Origin: Candidatus Saccharibacteria bacterium UBA1050 | Lineage (GTDB): Bacteria; Patescibacteriota; Saccharimonadia; Saccharimonadales; Saccharimonadaceae | Assembly (NCBI GenBank): GCA_002316545.1 | Contig: DCDR01000002.1 | Location: forward strand, 18,248-82,247 | Length of the DNA: 64,000 nucleotides | Direction of reading: 5' to 3' | Shown here: positions 8,411 to 61,391 of the stretch, piece by piece | Numbering within the stretch: position 1 is the stretch's first letter | Layout: each line of letters opens with the position of its first letter | Notes under the pieces: generated by a model | Database searches by the model: none | The model's input: the letters and a program-made list of their open reading frames with translations, nothing else | What the model was told of the DNA's origin: nothing | Program-made: the position numbers and the translations under genes

Positions 8411-8451
8411 TTTCATTAAAATAACACCCGGCGTATTTACCGGGTGTTATT
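8411..8451 (-). terminator. Rho-independent terminator after the 57-aa ORF
   Basis: Perfect 12-bp inverted repeat AATAACACCCGG (8420-8431) / CCGGGTGTTATT (8440-8451) with an 8-nt loop, followed on the minus strand by TTTAATGAAAAG. Confidence 0.7.
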
Positions 8452-8454
8452 TCG

Positions 8455-54641: not shown

Positions 54642-55709
54642 ATGTCGATTTCAGAGGTAAAAGTTGCAAATCTTCGTTCATATGCGTTGTTTGATGCGCA
54701 GCTTGACCCACACGTCACGCTTATTTTGGGGCCAAATGGCTCTGGCAAAACCAGTCTACTGGAAGCACTGTATGTCATGTGTCGAGGTACGAGTTTTCGT
54801 GGCCGCGACCGCGACATACTAGCTCATGACCAAACCACCACTGATATTCGTCTCGATTTTTCAACCGGTGACACCAGACGAGCTCGCCTACAACTAGTTG
54901 CCGCTGATAAACTGAATAAGACTTTTACTATTGATGATAAAACCTCTCAACGACTACTTACAAAACACCGATTGCCTGTCGTCTTATTCGAGCCGGACGA
55001 GCTTCGCCTTCTATCGAGCAGCCCACAACGTCGACGGCAATTTCTCGATGATGTACTAAGCCGATTGTACCCAGCCTACGCGACGATTCTTAGCCGTTTT
55101 AATCGTGCCCTCCTGCAACGAAACGAGCTACTAAAACAGCAAGAATCTATGGATTTTGCAGTGTGGGAGAAACATCTTTTTGTGTGGGATGTAAAGTTCG
55201 CCGAGCTTGCAAGCAGTCTTGTTCGTCTGCGTCATGATTTCACTGAGTTAGCCAACCGACACTTAAGTCGCCTATATAGCAGCATGGCGAGTAAAGAACA
55301 CCGGGTGAGCATGGTGTATGAACCCCTCGGCAAACTCGATTCATACCAACAAAAGCTCCTGGCCTTACTGCAGCATTCGCATCAGCACGACGCCCTACGA
55401 GGCTTTACGTCACAAGGTCCTCATCGCGATGACTTTACCATTTTGCTCGATAATTACCCTGCTTCAGACACCGCATCTCGGGGTGAAATGCGCACAATTA
55501 TGCTGGCGTTCAAGTTGCTTGAAGTAGAGCTACAACAAGAACTAAGCAACCAAGCACCGCTTATTTTAATGGATGATGTGTTTTCAGAGCTCGATATTAC
55601 CCGTGAACGACATCTCATGCATACTCTCCAAGGCTACCAAACAGTCATCACTGCTACTGATTTACGCGATGAACTGAAAATCAACGCGAAGATTATCACA
55701 TTAAAATAA
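54642..55709 (+). CDS. recF: DNA replication and repair protein RecF
   Basis: Walker A GPNGSGKTSLLEA, signature-like region GEMRTIMLAFKL, Walker B LILMDDVFSELD. Confidence 0.9.
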   Translation: MSISEVKVANLRSYALFDAQLDPHVTLILGPNGSGKTSLLEALYVMCRGTSFRGRDRDILAHDQTTTDIRLDFSTGDTRRARLQLVAADKLNKTFTIDDKTSQRLLTKHRLPVVLFEPDELRLLSSSPQRRRQFLDDVLSRLYPAYATILSRFNRALLQRNELLKQQESMDFAVWEKHLFVWDVKFAELASSLVRLRHDFTELANRHLSRLYSSMASKEHRVSMVYEPLGKLDSYQQKLLALLQHSHQHDALRGFTSQGPHRDDFTILLDNYPASDTASRGEMRTIMLAFKLLEVELQQELSNQAPLILMDDVFSELDITRERHLMHTLQGYQTVITATDLRDELKINAKIITLK

Positions 55710-55739
55710 CCCGCTCATAAGAACGGGTTATTTTATTTT
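55708..55739. terminator. Bidirectional intrinsic terminator between recF and tsf
   Basis: AACCCG (55708-55713), a 10-nt loop and CGGGTT (55724-55729), followed by ATTTTATTTT. Confidence 0.7.
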
Positions 55740-55748
55740 GATTAGCGT

Positions 55749-56345
55749 CTACTCGTTTACGCCGAGTTCAATTCGTTTAAATTGACCGACAACGATGTTT
55801 TCACCTAATTTCGCGATGTTTTCTTTCACATGTTGCTCAACTGTTTTTGAATCGTCGAGAATGTAGCTTTGGCTCATCAACACCTTCTCAGCAAAGTGTT
55901 TTTTCACCTGGCCATCAACGATCTTCTCGCGCATTTCAGCTGGTTTGCTGGCTAGCGTTTCGCTTGCAAGCATTTCTTCTTTCACGCGGCTCATTTCGTC
56001 AGCCGGAACATCTGCTTCGGTTGCGTAGAGTGGGCTCATTGCCGCTACTTGCATTGAAAGTTCGTGGGCAAGTTGCTTAAAGTCATCAAGACGCGCCACA
56101 AAGTCTGTCTCGCAGTTTAGCTCTAATACGACGCCAATACGTCCATCGTGTACGTAGCTGTCAATCACACCTTCGCGAGCTTCACGGTCACCTTTTTTCT
56201 CGGCTTTCGTAAGGCCTTTTTTGCGAAGTGCTTCAAGTGCGTTATCGAAGTTACCGTCAGCTTCTACCAACGCTTGCTTTGCGTCGGTCAAACCAATCCC
56301 AGTCAGTTCTTTTAGCTTTTTTATGTCTTCTACCGTAATTGCCAT
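55749..56345 (-). CDS. tsf: Elongation factor Ts (short form)
   Basis: IKKLKELTGIGLTDAKQALVEADGNFDNALEALRKKG is the UBA-like N-terminus; 198 aa. Confidence 0.9.
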   Translation of the reverse strand: MAITVEDIKKLKELTGIGLTDAKQALVEADGNFDNALEALRKKGLTKAEKKGDREAREGVIDSYVHDGRIGVVLELNCETDFVARLDDFKQLAHELSMQVAAMSPLYATEADVPADEMSRVKEEMLASETLASKPAEMREKIVDGQVKKHFAEKVLMSQSYILDDSKTVEQHVKENIAKLGENIVVGQFKRIELGVNE

Positions 56346-57040
56346 TATTTTTCCGCCTTTCCACCTTCTTTTACAGCTGCTACAAAATAATCTAGTAGCA
56401 ATTGAGTACCTTTAATCGCGTCGTCGTTGCCAGGAACAACGTAATCAACCATTGATGGGTCTGCGTTGGTGTCTACTACACCTACTACAGGCACACCAAG
56501 CGTGCGAGCTTCGCGAATCGCGTTCGCATCGGTAAGTGTGTCAACTACTACCACAGCGCCAGGAATACCGCTAAGATCTTTGATGCCACCATACTTGTGG
56601 TTCAATACGTCAATTTCTTCTTGAAAACGCTGTACCTCAAGTTTGTTGTATCGCTTTTCAAGGTCGCCAGAAGCCATGCGGCGTTCGAGGTCTTTTAGCT
56701 TCTTGATTTGGCTGGTTACAGTTGCCACGTTGGTAAGCATGCCGCCAATCCAGCGCTCAGTTACGAATGGCTGGCCAGCTGCTTCCGCGGCAGCTTTTAC
56801 GATGTCTTTGTGCTGCTTTTTTGTACCAACAAATAGTACTTTTTTACCGTTAGCAGCTACTTTCGAAATAAACGGTAGTGCAACCTCAAGGCCCTCTACA
56901 GTTTTTTCAAGGTTGATAATGTGCGCTTCTTGGCGCTTTGAGTGAATGTACGGCGCCATTTTTGGGTGCCAACGGCTCGTTTTGTGTCCAAAATGAACAC
57001 CAGCTTCGAGCAAAGCTTTTATATCAACAGCAACTGCCAT
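56345..57040 (-). CDS. rpsB: 30S ribosomal protein S2
   Basis: Trimmed to ATG 57040 (MAVAVDIKALLEAGVHFGHKTSRWHPKMAPYI). Confidence 0.9.
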   Translation of the reverse strand: MAVAVDIKALLEAGVHFGHKTSRWHPKMAPYIHSKRQEAHIINLEKTVEGLEVALPFISKVAANGKKVLFVGTKKQHKDIVKAAAEAAGQPFVTERWIGGMLTNVATVTSQIKKLKDLERRMASGDLEKRYNKLEVQRFQEEIDVLNHKYGGIKDLSGIPGAVVVVDTLTDANAIREARTLGVPVVGVVDTNADPSMVDYVVPGNDDAIKGTQLLLDYFVAAVKEGGKAEK

Positions 57041-57115
57041 GATATCCTTCTCCCTTCCCATTCGCCCTATTTAGGATACGTGCGAATGGTGCTTCGTTAA
57101 AATTGTTACCTAGTG

Positions 57116-57144
57116 AGTATAACAAAAAAATGTCTTCTTTACAA
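57116..57144 (-). promoter_or_regulatory. Promoter of rpsB-tsf (TTGTAA-17-TATACT)
   Basis: Minus strand: TTGTAA (57144-57139), a 17-nt spacer and TATACT (57121-57116), followed by a ~65-nt leader. Confidence 0.55.
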
Positions 57145-57221
57145 GGTTAAAGCTCTTGATTTCTAAACAAAAATAATTTATTGTATGTTTGTTCATCCAT
57201 CGGAATGAAGGAGCGTGTGCG

Positions 57222-57479
57222 ATGTCGTCAAAGGCATCAGATCGCCTGATCTTGCTGGGGATGGTGGTCGTGGGTGTGCTCGGTGTCTTCTGGCTCCGCT
57301 CACTGCTCGACACCTACTCGAACGAGAGCAGCGCTTGCAAGGGCTGCCAGGGCGCGGCCATCATCTTCTTCTCGCCCTACATCATCATCGGAGGAGCAAT
57401 GGTGCTCGCTGGCCTCGTCGGGCTGGTGGGTCTCATCACTTCACCGTTCTCGCGCGACGAGCGCGACACGACGGGCTGA
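57222..57479 (+). CDS. Small two-TM membrane protein (85 aa) with foreign, GC3-rich codon usage
   Basis: AAGGAG (57208-57213) lies 8 nt upstream of ATG 57222. Translation: MSSKASDRLILLGMVVVGVLGVFWLRSLLDTYSNESSACKGCQGAAIIFFSPYIIIGGAMVLAGLVGLVGLITSPFSRDERDTTG. Codons end almost always in G or C. Confidence 0.6.
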   Translation: MSSKASDRLILLGMVVVGVLGVFWLRSLLDTYSNESSACKGCQGAAIIFFSPYIIIGGAMVLAGLVGLVGLITSPFSRDERDTTG

Positions 57480-57501
57480 ACGAATACTAGCCCGCCAATG
57501 A

Positions 57502-57564
57502 GAGGCCCGCTGGGAAAGACCATGAGTGGTCTTCCCTCGCCCACGGTATCTCCCGGCGGGCCTC
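57502..57564 (+). terminator. Nested GC-rich hairpin (terminator-like, no U-tract)
   Basis: The outer stem is GAGGCCCGC (57502-57510) / GCGGGCCTC (57556-57564). The inner imperfect stem is GGGAAAGACCA / TGGTCTTCCC. Confidence 0.45.
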
Positions 57565-57572
57565 TTCATGCC

Positions 57573-58937
57573 CTAACGCGAACGATTCGCAACGAGTAGC
57601 AGAGCTATACCAGGATACGCTTTCTCGTATTCGACCAGTTGGTTTAGCTCGTACTTATTCAGCTTTGATGAAAATTCTCTGGTTGAATTGACGTCCGCCA
57701 AACCATTTGGAGTATCAGAAAGAATCCCCGAGCTTAATTCTGCCGAAAACTCCTCGGAGCTAGTTCGTGAGTACATTGATGGCACTTCGGGCAAGCCAAT
57801 AACGTGACGACCCACCTGCTCACCTATGGCTGTGGCTGTAACGTCTGTGGTTTGCCCACCTTCTGGAATTTGTTGAATGCCTATGCCATTTTCCTCAAAT
57901 GCATGGCCAAGCTCGTGAGCAATAATTGATTCATACGATACATTCCCATCCCCCGCCCATTGTTGCAGATACGTAGCCGCTTTAAACGCCGCACTGGAAT
58001 AAGGGATGATAGTAATGCTTTTATCACCACTACTATACTCGCCGGCTTTTGTCATGCCACTGTCAGAGGATTGTACGAACGGTTCAGCCATACGAACTCG
58101 TTTTACAGCAGCCTTTTGTATAAAATCTCTCGGTAAGTTGGTAAATACCTTAATATAGGCTTTTGCCATATCTTTTACTTCGTCTTCTTTTCCGTCAAAC
58201 GATGCATCAATCTCGGCTTCAATTCCATAGAACTGTGTTATCGAACCAAGTGCGTTAACGGCCTCCTGGTTCGAATGACTTTCATCTACTCGTTGATAGG
58301 CAGCGGCCAACCTATCTGCGTCCAAGAATTGATCCGCATGCTCTTGCTTCCACGCCTCGGCCGTTTGAATGATATTATCGTAGCCATCTTTATCTGCTTC
58401 TGTAAATAAGTCGATGACGGTTTGACGCGCCGCATTATGTTTAGCAGCTTTACTTTCTGCATCGTTAATCATTTTTGCTTGGGCACTTTGTGAGTAGTCA
58501 CTAAAGCCTATGCCATCGACGGTACCCTCTGTATCGATATAGTCGGTATACGTTTGAGAAGCTACGTCAGCTGCAACGACATCTCCAGCATCCTTAAACG
58601 GATCCATCGCCATATCTATAAAGCCACCCCCTTTTATAGTGCTTGCAAGCGCTACTGTCGCTAGCGCCATTTTGTATCGGCGTTTCCATTTATGTATTTT
58701 TTCTCCGCGAACCCACCGCTTTCTCGCCTCAATCCGTTCACGCTCTTCCGCCTCTCGCTGTGGTCGCATTGCTTCATTCTGGGCGCGTATCCGGGCAATA
58801 CCTTCTTCCATCGTCTCAAATTCTAAAGGTACCTCAACATCAGTGCGATGCTCTGGTCGCATGTTTAGCGCAGCTTCAATATCTCTCACGTCTTGTTCTT
58901 GAGAAGGATACTCAAACTTTGGGTAATTTTCTGTCAT
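57573..58937 (-). CDS. Membrane-anchored zinc metallopeptidase, anthrax-lethal-factor-like (M34/ATLF-like) domain
   Basis: 454 aa with a charged N-terminal region and one TM helix ([14 protein letters not shown]). The C-terminal region has [13 protein letters not shown] followed about 50 residues later by [18 protein letters not shown]. Compare HEFGHAV ... YGRTNEAEFFAEAF in lethal factor, quoted from memory. Confidence 0.55.
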
Positions 58938-59346: not shown

Positions 59347-59355
59347 CTACAAATT

Positions 59356-59387
59356 AAAAAGAGACTGCGGTATTGTAGTCTCTTTTT
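59356..59387 (+). terminator. Intrinsic terminator after rpmE
   Basis: AAAAAGAGACT (59356-59366), a 10-nt loop and AGTCTCTTTTT (59377-59387). Confidence 0.75.
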
Positions 59388-59408
59388 ATATGTAATAATG
59401 AGAACATC

Positions 59409-59858
59409 ATGACAGCCCCAAATGTACCAGCAAAATACAATTCATCAGTCGTTCAGCAAACGGCAGGCTTGGCCTTGCTCCTCCTGTGCATTGCGACAGT
59501 ATATGTCAACATACAGGGCTCAGTTTACATTGATAATGGCCTTTTACTACCTTCCCTTGAGGTATTGGGTGGACTATTGCTCCTGGTGCTCAGCGCGATG
59601 TCTGCACATAAGGCTCAAGCAATCCCTGCCTTCAACAAAAATCTCATGAAACTAAATGTGGTCATCGCTGTTATTTTGCTTGGTGGTACTGGCTTTCTGT
59701 TTTTCTTTGGACTGGTGTTTGCACTTGCGATGGGTGGAGGCGCCACATCGTCTTCAGAGATCTCCATTGCGGGACTACCATTCGTTGCAATATTATTAGG
59801 CATACTAGCTGTTGTGGTGATCGCTCAGGGTAATCACTGGAGGAAGTTACAAAAGTAA
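59409..59858 (+). CDS. Four-TM small membrane protein
   Basis: 149 aa with four hydrophobic helices. Its stop overlaps the prfA ATG (TAATG). Confidence 0.6.
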
Positions 59859-60932: not shown

Positions 60933-61391
60933 CTACAAGCCTCGATACCACGTTTCAGGGACGATTTCGCTAAATGCTTCTGCAAGTGATGTATCGCGTA
61001 CAGGTCGTGGATATCGAGTATTTACCGTTTCTAAAAATGCTTCTATTTCACCCAATGGGTAGAACGAGCTAAAGTTGCCCGTGTTTGAGAAGTAATCTAT
61101 TCGAACTTCAGGAATCGGAAGTACGTCTGCCGGGCTAATTCGAACATCTCCCTCACCCACTTCGTCGTAAAGTCCTGCCTCTAGCAAGTCAATGGCGAAT
61201 ACCCAGGTCGTCTCTCCACCTTGAACCATATGTGTTAAATGTAGCGCACAGGGGTCATCGGGCGAATAGCGAAATGATACGTCGTGAAAAGCGCGATATC
61301 CTTCAGAGGTATAACTTGCAGCATGAAACAACCGTTCGACATTCGGCACGGGCGTCGGCAAATCCCCACCTCGGTGTGGTATTTCACTCAT
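60933..61391 (-). CDS. SsgA/SsgB-like (SALP) family protein
   Basis: 152 aa. The stretch FRYSPDDPCALHLTHMVQGGETTWVFAIDLLEAGLYDEVGEGDVRISP...EIEAFLETVNTRYP parallels the SsgB core as I remember it (LRYDTADPYAVHATFH..EETVEWVFARDLLAEGL...GTGDVRVWP...LESFLKRTDAAVP). Confidence 0.6.
   Translation of the reverse strand: MSEIPHRGGDLPTPVPNVERLFHAASYTSEGYRAFHDVSFRYSPDDPCALHLTHMVQGGETTWVFAIDLLEAGLYDEVGEGDVRISPADVLPIPEVRIDYFSNTGNFSSFYPLGEIEAFLETVNTRYPRPVRDTSLAEAFSEIVPETWYRGL

Follow-up and report, generated by a model that had tools for sequence, protein, structure and literature searches.

A compositionally foreign and conserved small membrane-protein gene, probably of horizontal origin, between rpsB and a putative metalloprotease gene in activated-sludge Saccharibacteria

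A stretch of 64,000 nt from Candidatus Saccharibacteria bacterium UBA1050 (GCA_002316545.1, contig DCDR01000002.1, positions 18,248-82,247 of the forward strand; hereafter the window) contains a short block of exceptionally high guanine plus cytosine (G+C) content between rpsB and the gene of a 454-aa protein with an HExxH motif, both on the minus strand. The block is made up of one open reading frame (ORF) of 85 codons, here called ORF85, followed by a long stem-loop. It is compositionally foreign to the window, it is not an assembly artefact, and ORF85 is a genuine protein-coding gene under purifying selection, shared by three closely related lineages. The reading that we favor, as a probable one that leaves real room for doubt, is that the block was horizontally acquired from a high-G+C source and domesticated together with its conserved stem-loop.

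Composition of the ORF85 block

The block is the G+C maximum among all the 373-nt segments of the window (mean 46.6%, standard deviation 3.0%), and the richest segment not overlapping it reaches 56.0%. On its left side, the G+C content steps up abruptly from 22-30% at about 57195-57205, while its right edge coincides with the stop codon of the HExxH gene. The counts made by hand in an earlier reading of this DNA from its letters and open reading frames (the sequence-only reading: 62, 67 and 22%) were reproduced by computation, which gives 61.7% G+C for 57241-57300, 66.7% for 57301-57360 and 21.7% for 57121-57180. The three open forward frames that it had pointed out were found as well (57189-57479, 57215-57490 and 57274-57501).

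The anomaly is most pronounced at the third codon positions. The G+C contents of the first, second and third codon positions of ORF85 (GC1, GC2 and GC3) are 0.56, 0.48 and 0.81, respectively. In the 62 other genes of the window, GC3 has a mean of 0.455, a standard deviation of 0.034 and a maximum of 0.514, which places ORF85 about 10 standard deviations above them, and the highest value among 14,366 sub-windows of 86 codons taken from these other genes (0.674) is still below that of ORF85. The statement that its codons end almost exclusively in G or C was slightly overstated, as 16 of the 86 end in A or T, but the strong deviation in GC3 that it described is real; ORF85 is a clear outlier, so the possibility, raised at the same time, that formal statistics would show an unexceptional gene can be set aside. 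The periodicity of G+C along the sequence is that of a high-GC gene and singles out the frame of ORF85; the only other frame with a high third-position G+C is antisense and contains stops.

Distribution and integrity of the locus

The exact 85-aa protein is encoded on at least 23 contigs from the JGI, ENA, Logan and NCBI assemblies, always between rpsB and the HExxH gene. These contigs include two of 927 kb and 904 kb, and the 927-kb contig, from JGI, matches 16.8 kb of the window with 100.000% identity. The identical or near-identical proteins carry the NCBI label "Candidatus Saccharibacteria bacterium" and come from sludge and bioreactor metagenomes, and the nearest rpsB loci among the GTDB species genomes all belong to Saccharimonadia.

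The segment occurs at the same site in two other lineages. In the sister lineage (L001-L003), ORF85 has 96% amino-acid identity to the window protein and the flanking genes have 86-92% nucleotide identity; in the third lineage (L100), ORF85 is 91% identical. It was found only in the window species and in these two lineages, 80 other rpsB loci of Saccharimonadia lack it, and every contig that encodes it has a Saccharibacteria context.

The searches for a donor were all negative outside this group. For ORF85, the Saccharibacteria cluster was all that came out of a word-indexed search of 5.8 billion clusters, and phmmer, run exhaustively over 1.84 billion representatives, gave no other. Comparison by blastn and tblastn with 50,697 phage and 72,556 plasmid records gave nothing better than E = 0.1, viral contigs scanned with the ORF85 peptide and with the hairpin pattern gave no match, and the single contig matched by the hairpin pattern in the metagenomes comes from the same organism. 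No donor or homologue was thus found outside the three closely related Saccharibacteria lineages. One of the outcomes that the sequence-only reading had named as speaking against a transfer, namely that low-GC relatives would share the segment and that no high-GC homologue would turn up, is literally what was found.

ORF85 encodes a conserved two-helix membrane protein

The substitutions that separate the window from the sister lineage L001 have the pattern expected of a coding gene. Of the 14 differences in ORF85, 11 affect the third position of a codon (binomial p = 7e-4), only three change an amino acid, all of them conservatively, and the ratio of nonsynonymous to synonymous divergence (dN/dS) is 0.086. 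Purifying selection has maintained ORF85 after its acquisition, so that it is a domesticated gene and not junk. The Shine-Dalgarno sequence AAGGAG, located where the sequence-only reading had placed it, 8 nt upstream of the ATG, is invariant in the three lineages. A candidate promoter lies within the AT-rich spacer and is directed away from the rpsB promoter (Table 1). It was read from the sequence by eye, being below the threshold of the promoter scan, which did not return it; both of its hexamers are invariant in L001 and L100.

The two hydrophobic helices flanking a Cys-x-x-Cys loop that had been described are borne out by hydrophobic segments at about residues 9-29 and 45-75, on either side of a loop with the motif SSACKGCQG, and by a single-sequence AlphaFold2 model with long helices at residues 3-38 and 43-73 (mean predicted local distance difference test score 71). 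No residue of the loop region R26-Y53, of which C39-x-x-C42 is part, varies among the three lineages; the invariant loop that carries C39-K-G-C42 is described as 18 residues long. The likely topology of the protein has both termini inside and a short external loop carrying the C-x-x-C. Searches for protein families in Pfam, PHROGs, NCBIfam and the PDB sequences returned only sub-threshold hydrophobic matches, the best PHROG match (E = 0.009) being to a family without known function. Our best guess is that ORF85 is a small oligomerising membrane protein with glycine-rich helices, whose external cysteine pair would bind a metal or form a redox-active disulfide.

Among known small proteins with two transmembrane (TM) helices, class II holins are similar to ORF85 in length (85 aa), in their two glycine-rich TM helices, in their probable topology with both termini inside and in their charged C-terminal tail. 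Unlike them, ORF85 has no significant match in PHROGs, Pfam or NCBIfam, and its neighbors are rpsB and the HExxH gene instead of an endolysin or other phage genes; moreover, holins are not characterized by an external C-x-x-C loop. The best PHROG match and the lack of a lysis-cassette context led to the rejection of a holin identity.

The stem-loop downstream of ORF85

The GC-rich hairpin without a U-tract that had been noticed after the ORF was confirmed as a long imperfect stem-loop between the convergent stops of ORF85 and the HExxH gene (Table 1). Its folding energy is -45 kcal/mol on the plus strand and -54 kcal/mol on the minus strand, considerably better than that of shuffled sequences (z = -4.3 and -4.6, respectively). 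The hairpin of a canonical Rho-independent terminator is therefore present and its U-tract absent: neither strand has a T-run there and the terminator scan reports no site. The native terminators of the window are short hairpins with A and T runs on their flanks (for instance at 55688-55749, 8419-8452 and 59355-59388), so that both the style and the composition of this GC-rich hairpin are foreign.

The sequence of the stem-loop is more constrained than the synonymous sites of ORF85. Over the 93 nt that separate the two stops (57480-57572), L001 differs from the window at two positions, both 5' of the stem, and L100 at none, whereas synonymous differences in ORF85 amount to 11/66 (proportion of synonymous differences 0.17; p = 9e-6 against 2/93). 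The structure is most likely a bidirectional terminator without a U-tract or a hairpin stabilising 3' ends, but since its loops and bulges are conserved too, something more sequence-specific may be involved.

Two known types of elements come close to it. Hairpins that are rich in G+C and lack a U-tract are a style of terminator common in high-GC actinobacteria. The I-shaped terminators of these organisms, like the window stem-loop, are long GC-rich hairpins that follow immediately on a stop codon, have no U-run and lie between convergent genes. The window stem-loop differs from them in being conserved, loops and bulges included, beyond the needs of a terminator and in folding better as minus-strand RNA; its terminator role is a predicted one. 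A small ORF followed by a bulged imperfect palindrome of about 70 nt also recalls an integron gene cassette. Yet the ends of the window stem lack the R''(RYYYAAC) and R'(GTTRRRY) core sites, and the hairpin pattern is absent elsewhere in the viral and metagenome collections scanned. No integrase domain figures among the Pfam matches listed for the neighboring genes. The integron-cassette identity was rejected on account of the missing attC core sites at the ends of the hairpin.

Table 1. Coordinates of the features discussed, in window positions
Feature	Position	Strand	Remarks
High-G+C block	57200-57572		61.7% G+C against a background of 46.6%
ORF85, 85-aa two-helix membrane protein	57222-57479	+	GC3 0.81; loop with C39-K-G-C42; charged C-terminus SRDERDTTG
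Shine-Dalgarno sequence AAGGAG	57208-57213	+	8 nt before the ATG at 57222; invariant in three lineages
Candidate sigma-70-like promoter	57156-57184	+	TTGATT, 17 nt, TATTGT; 8/12 matches
Long imperfect GC-rich stem-loop	57498-57569		72 nt; between the convergent stops at 57479 (ORF85) and 57573 (HExxH gene)
HExxH protein, 454 aa	57573-58937	-	AHELxHA motif, downstream EExxAEL, C-terminus YPGIAxLLVANR
Native rpsB promoter	57116-57144	-	Part of the region in the next row
rpsB promoter and conserved 5' leader stem-loop	57041-57144	-	Arms 57058-65 and 57082-89; native flank of the left junction

A variable site next to a variable gene

The spacer in which the block lies varies widely across Saccharimonadia. 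Among 75 loci of this class in which rpsB and rpmE are divergent, the starts of both genes are 127-166 nt apart in 19 loci and up to 5,670 nt apart in others. The cargo is lineage-specific and comprises type IV pilin-like genes in L014, L018, L024, L034 and L097, a collagen-like gene in L015, an ORF of 408 aa with a GC3 of 0.84 in L023, small TM ORFs in L017 and L022, and other unrelated ORFs. In L095, the HExxH gene is followed by a spacer of 141 nt and then by rpsB, an empty site to be compared with the 532 nt of the window. The rpsB-rpmE spacer is thus a site of recurrent gene gain and loss across the class. The GC-rich stretches of the spacers of L015, L032, L044 and L023 were considered as possible relatives of ORF85 and rejected, as they turned out to be unrelated genes (a collagen-like glycine-rich one, among others) or to belong to GC-richer genomes.

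Two other loci have an ORF of 106 aa with two TM segments (ORF106) in the same position and orientation as ORF85 (L098 2097-2417 and L099 1517-1843, both on the minus strand). The identity between these two contigs is 89%, and their HExxH protein is 38% identical to that of the window. ORF106 has a GC3 of 0.75-0.83, a near-consensus promoter (TTGACA-17-TAATGT) and its own hairpins. Homology between ORF85 and ORF106 was rejected, as BLASTP gives no match and hhalign a probability of 0.8%. L098 carries just one further gene fragment, likewise with a GC3 of 0.81, so ORF106 may be no outlier in its own genome.

The other neighbor of ORF85 is the HExxH protein, a putative membrane-anchored zinc protease. 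The position of ORF85 next to a putative metalloprotease, which the sequence-only reading had stressed, was confirmed, and this neighbor turned out to be hypervariable between sister lineages. The G+C content of its gene is normal (46%). Few proteins belong to its family: the databases yielded four relatives, 38-42% identical, and its members have an invariant AHELxHA motif, the EExxAEL motif and the C-terminus YPGIAxLLVANR in common. The conservation of the C-terminus indicates that the 3' end of the gene is ancestral and, consequently, that the insert ends before 57573. In the central part of the protein, the sister lineages have only about 47% amino-acid identity, while the neighboring proteins are 92-100% identical. 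This apparently swapped central part is bracketed by conserved ends at about 57573-57600 and at 58585-58937. The gene of L100 combines a central allele of the L001 type with a 3' end of the window type, a mixture that points to recombination with a breakpoint at about 57600.

Age of the insertion

The sequence-only reading had proposed a recent transfer of unameliorated DNA. Horizontal acquisition remains the best reading, but it was not a recent one: the genes flanking ORF85 in its three lineages have synonymous divergences (dS) of 0.44-0.83, and because the insert predates the split of these lineages, it is not recent on the scale of strain variation. The description as unameliorated was not upheld either, given this age. 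The dS of ORF85 itself is 0.19, below that of most flanking genes and similar to those of rpmE (0.18) and of the conserved 5' region of rpsB. The framework in which genes of atypical composition slowly ameliorate towards that of their new genome is reportedly due to Lawrence and Ochman; in the present segment no positive sign of such amelioration is seen, although the numbers are small.

Origin of the ORF85 block

Several scenarios may explain these observations. Horizontal acquisition seems the best of them because the composition is foreign, the gene is genuine and accompanied by an atypical stem-loop, the HExxH neighbor is variable and the spacer is a site of gene gain and loss. In this scenario, a piece of DNA of about 370 nt from a high-G+C source (with a donor GC3 estimated to be at least about 0.8-0.86) would have been inserted upstream of rpsB in the ancestor of at least three closely related lineages of uncultured activated-sludge Saccharibacteria, bringing along one gene, ORF85, and one RNA or DNA structure, the stem-loop. 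The gene would probably be transcribed divergently from rpsB by way of the candidate promoter, which lies in native, AT-rich spacer DNA, and its canonical AAGGAG site would serve for translation into an 85-residue helical-hairpin membrane protein. The stem-loop would insulate ORF85 from the HExxH gene, either as a bidirectional terminator or by stabilising 3' ends.

Several points weigh against this acquisition. Since no donor or outside homologue was found, the case for transfer is one of composition, patchy distribution and location. No flanking direct repeats were found beyond chance 9-12-mers, the window contains no tRNA, and there is no integrase, transposase or recombinase among the Pfam matches listed for the neighboring genes. 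The GC3 of ORF85 is 0.80-0.81 in all three lineages; when the singleton third-position changes are polarised on the three-taxon tree, six go from GC to AT and four from AT to GC, where a neutral decay towards a GC3 of 0.455 predicts a ratio of about 5:1 (binomial p = 0.07, with small numbers). So weak an excess suggests that the high GC3 may be partly maintained instead of merely not yet ameliorated. Finally, the non-homologous ORF106 of L098 and L099, with its high GC3, its two TM segments and its identical position, could be an old and fast-evolving positional orthologue.

The block resembles other horizontally acquired orphan genes or genomic islets in its discontinuity of G+C and GC3, its restriction to a narrow clade, its variable site between core genes and its lack of homologues. 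It differs from them in its very small size (about 370 nt and a single gene), in the absence of any mobility gene, tRNA or flanking repeat among the features found, in the purifying selection acting on ORF85 and in a GC3 that shows no clear decay across three lineages. If horizontally acquired, ORF85 is a domesticated orphan gene of a familiar class and requires no new principle. It is nevertheless a clean case, with sharp borders, a fixed site, purifying selection in three lineages and a strongly conserved stem-loop. The genomes of Saccharibacteria are of about 1 Mb and these organisms live on other bacteria, so each foreign gene that they retain is a candidate for interaction with the host. 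A donor of ORF85, if one came to light, could lead to the host of this lineage from activated sludge. Together with the rpsB-rpmE hotspot, ORF85 is useful for annotation and for choosing targets of expression studies, and offers a lead for the biology of epibionts and their hosts.

A more specific version of the transfer, in which the segment derives from the Actinomycetota host of the epibiont, is what the sequence-only reading had proposed, and it now seems unlikely. A G+C content of 62% and a GC3 of 0.81-0.86 would fit many Actinomycetota, the hairpin has the style of an actinobacterial terminator, and an SsgA-like protein encoded 3.4 kb away suggests past gene flow from this phylum. On the other hand, neither the phmmer search nor the cluster search yielded a single homologue outside Saccharibacteria, nothing significant came from the phage and plasmid records, in which actinophages and Streptomyces plasmids are well represented, the viral contigs gave no match, the only metagenome match to the hairpin pattern is from the same organism, and all the contigs with ORF85 have a Saccharibacteria context. 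Moreover, the block composition would suit any genome whose G+C content is about 60-68%, and since genes with a GC3 of 0.65-0.84 exist in some GC-richer Saccharimonadia loci (L095, L098 and L023), composition does not separate the phyla and cannot by itself name the one of origin.

A precedent for such a host origin exists. A transfer from the host Ca. Phosphoribacter to a wastewater genus of Saccharimonadia has been reported (bioRxiv 10.64898/2026.09.16.751625). This case, that of Ca. Lutisaccharimonas and Ca. Phosphoribacter, is similar to ours in habitat, in class, in the plausibility of high-GC Actinomycetota partners and in the presence of small genes of unknown function in the cargo (bioRxiv 10.64898/2026.09.16.751625). 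It differs in that the transferred DNA matches an actual actinobacterial genome at a nucleotide identity above 99% and is accompanied by recombinase genes, whereas ORF85 has no donor sequence and stems from an old event; the ORF85 segment is also shorter than the 500-bp filter used in that study (bioRxiv 10.64898/2026.09.16.751625).

Alternatively, ORF85 could be a native, old and fast-evolving gene whose high GC3 arose locally, through GC-biased gene conversion at a recombination hotspot or through selection on its mRNA. This explanation, which we deem unlikely and slightly less credible than an actinobacterial host origin, would be congruent with the occurrence of the 106-aa ORF at the same place and orientation in L098 and L099, with its high GC3 and strong promoter, with the small TM ORFs in the spacers of L017 and L022, with the allele swapping of the adjacent HExxH gene, with a breakpoint near 57600, and with a GC3 that is stable in three lineages, in which changes from GC to AT are in smaller excess than a neutral decay would give. 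Nevertheless, ORF85 and ORF106 are dissimilar even though ORF85 evolves slowly (91-96% identity, against 47% for the HExxH proteins of the same lineages), and ORF106 may simply match its own genome. The sharp compositional step takes in the non-coding stem-loop but spares the HExxH gene, which is the one that recombines, and the spacer is empty (127-166 nt) in 19 loci.

A bolder proposal, and in our opinion an improbable one, would see the spacer upstream of rpsB as a landing pad dedicated to the repeated capture and domestication of small membrane-protein genes from high-GC hosts, with ORF85 and its stem-loop working together with the hypervariable HExxH protease at the interface between epibiont and host, and with the high GC3 kept for its importance, for instance in regulation through host-like codon usage or mRNA structure. 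ORF85, the ORF106 of L098 and L099 and the pilin-like genes found elsewhere would then be examples of its cargo.

The possibility that the whole block is a gene for a structured non-coding RNA and ORF85 a spurious frame deserves mention, as a high G+C content is frequent in genes of this type in AT-richer genomes, and the stem-loop is significantly stable and very conserved. However, the ORF85 part folds no better than shuffled sequences (z = -0.46 and +1.63), and the concentration of substitutions at position 3 and the periodicity mark a single frame. Rfam at E <= 1 gives only a chance match to the snoRNA sR53, with 20 bits against a gathering threshold of 49 (E = 0.04), and ARAGORN finds no tRNA or tmRNA. 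Taken together, the lack of structure in the ORF, the absence of matches to these RNAs and the coding signal lead us to reject this explanation for the block as a whole, to which we grant very little credit. Lastly, an assembly chimera or a contaminating high-GC read, for which the abrupt change in composition is the sole argument and which the sequence-only reading had wanted to see excluded, is effectively refuted by the presence of the same junctions on 23 or more contigs that independent projects obtained separately with independent assemblers, by the perfect identity over 16.8 kb to the 927-kb contig and by the same insertion site in two diverged lineages, with substitutions typical of vertical evolution.

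Other observations on the neighborhood

Beyond the HExxH gene, the window has, in this order, rpmE (ribosomal protein L31), an ORF for a 149-aa membrane protein, prfA, the SsgA-like gene and prmC. The SsgA-like protein (152 aa, 60933-61391 on the minus strand) is encoded by a gene of normal G+C content (48%). It scores 56.5 bits to PF04686 (cutoff 25) and matches Streptomyces SsgA (6slc) with E = 8e-8 and Thermobifida SsgB (3cm1) with E = 1e-6. Its copy in the sister species is only 44% identical, and among 93 loci no lineage but these two has it. Proteins of the SsgA type are considered a hallmark of actinomycetes. No paper pairing SsgA with Saccharibacteria or Patescibacteria was found in the literature searched.

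The 5' leader of rpsB (57041-57100, as minus-strand RNA) is conserved across Saccharimonadia, in about 75 rpsB loci (L014-L099). Its layout consists of GTAAC..TTTAAYGA..CA, a stem-loop whose CUCC-containing loop is complementary to the GGAG of the ribosome-binding site, and the start codon. The arms of the stem-loop covary, with double-sided changes in all five of the pairs predicted by RNAalifold, and the leader has no match in Rfam. It may be an autoregulatory leader for ribosomal protein S2. The rpsB ORF is listed as 56345-57061, but the conserved start is at 57040, and the conservation of the leader indicates that the latter is the true one.

The 149-aa ORF (59409-59858 on the plus strand) has multiple TM segments and lies between rpmE and prfA. 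It is absent from the sister lineage L001, in which rpmE is directly followed by prfA, and is thus another recent difference in gene content within the same 7-kb neighborhood. On the other side of the locus, the start of tsf overlaps the stop of rpsB in the window, whereas L001 has a spacer of about 95 nt there (56345-56400 in the window, 9026-9121 in L001); this difference corresponds to an indel between genes that are otherwise 91-94% identical.

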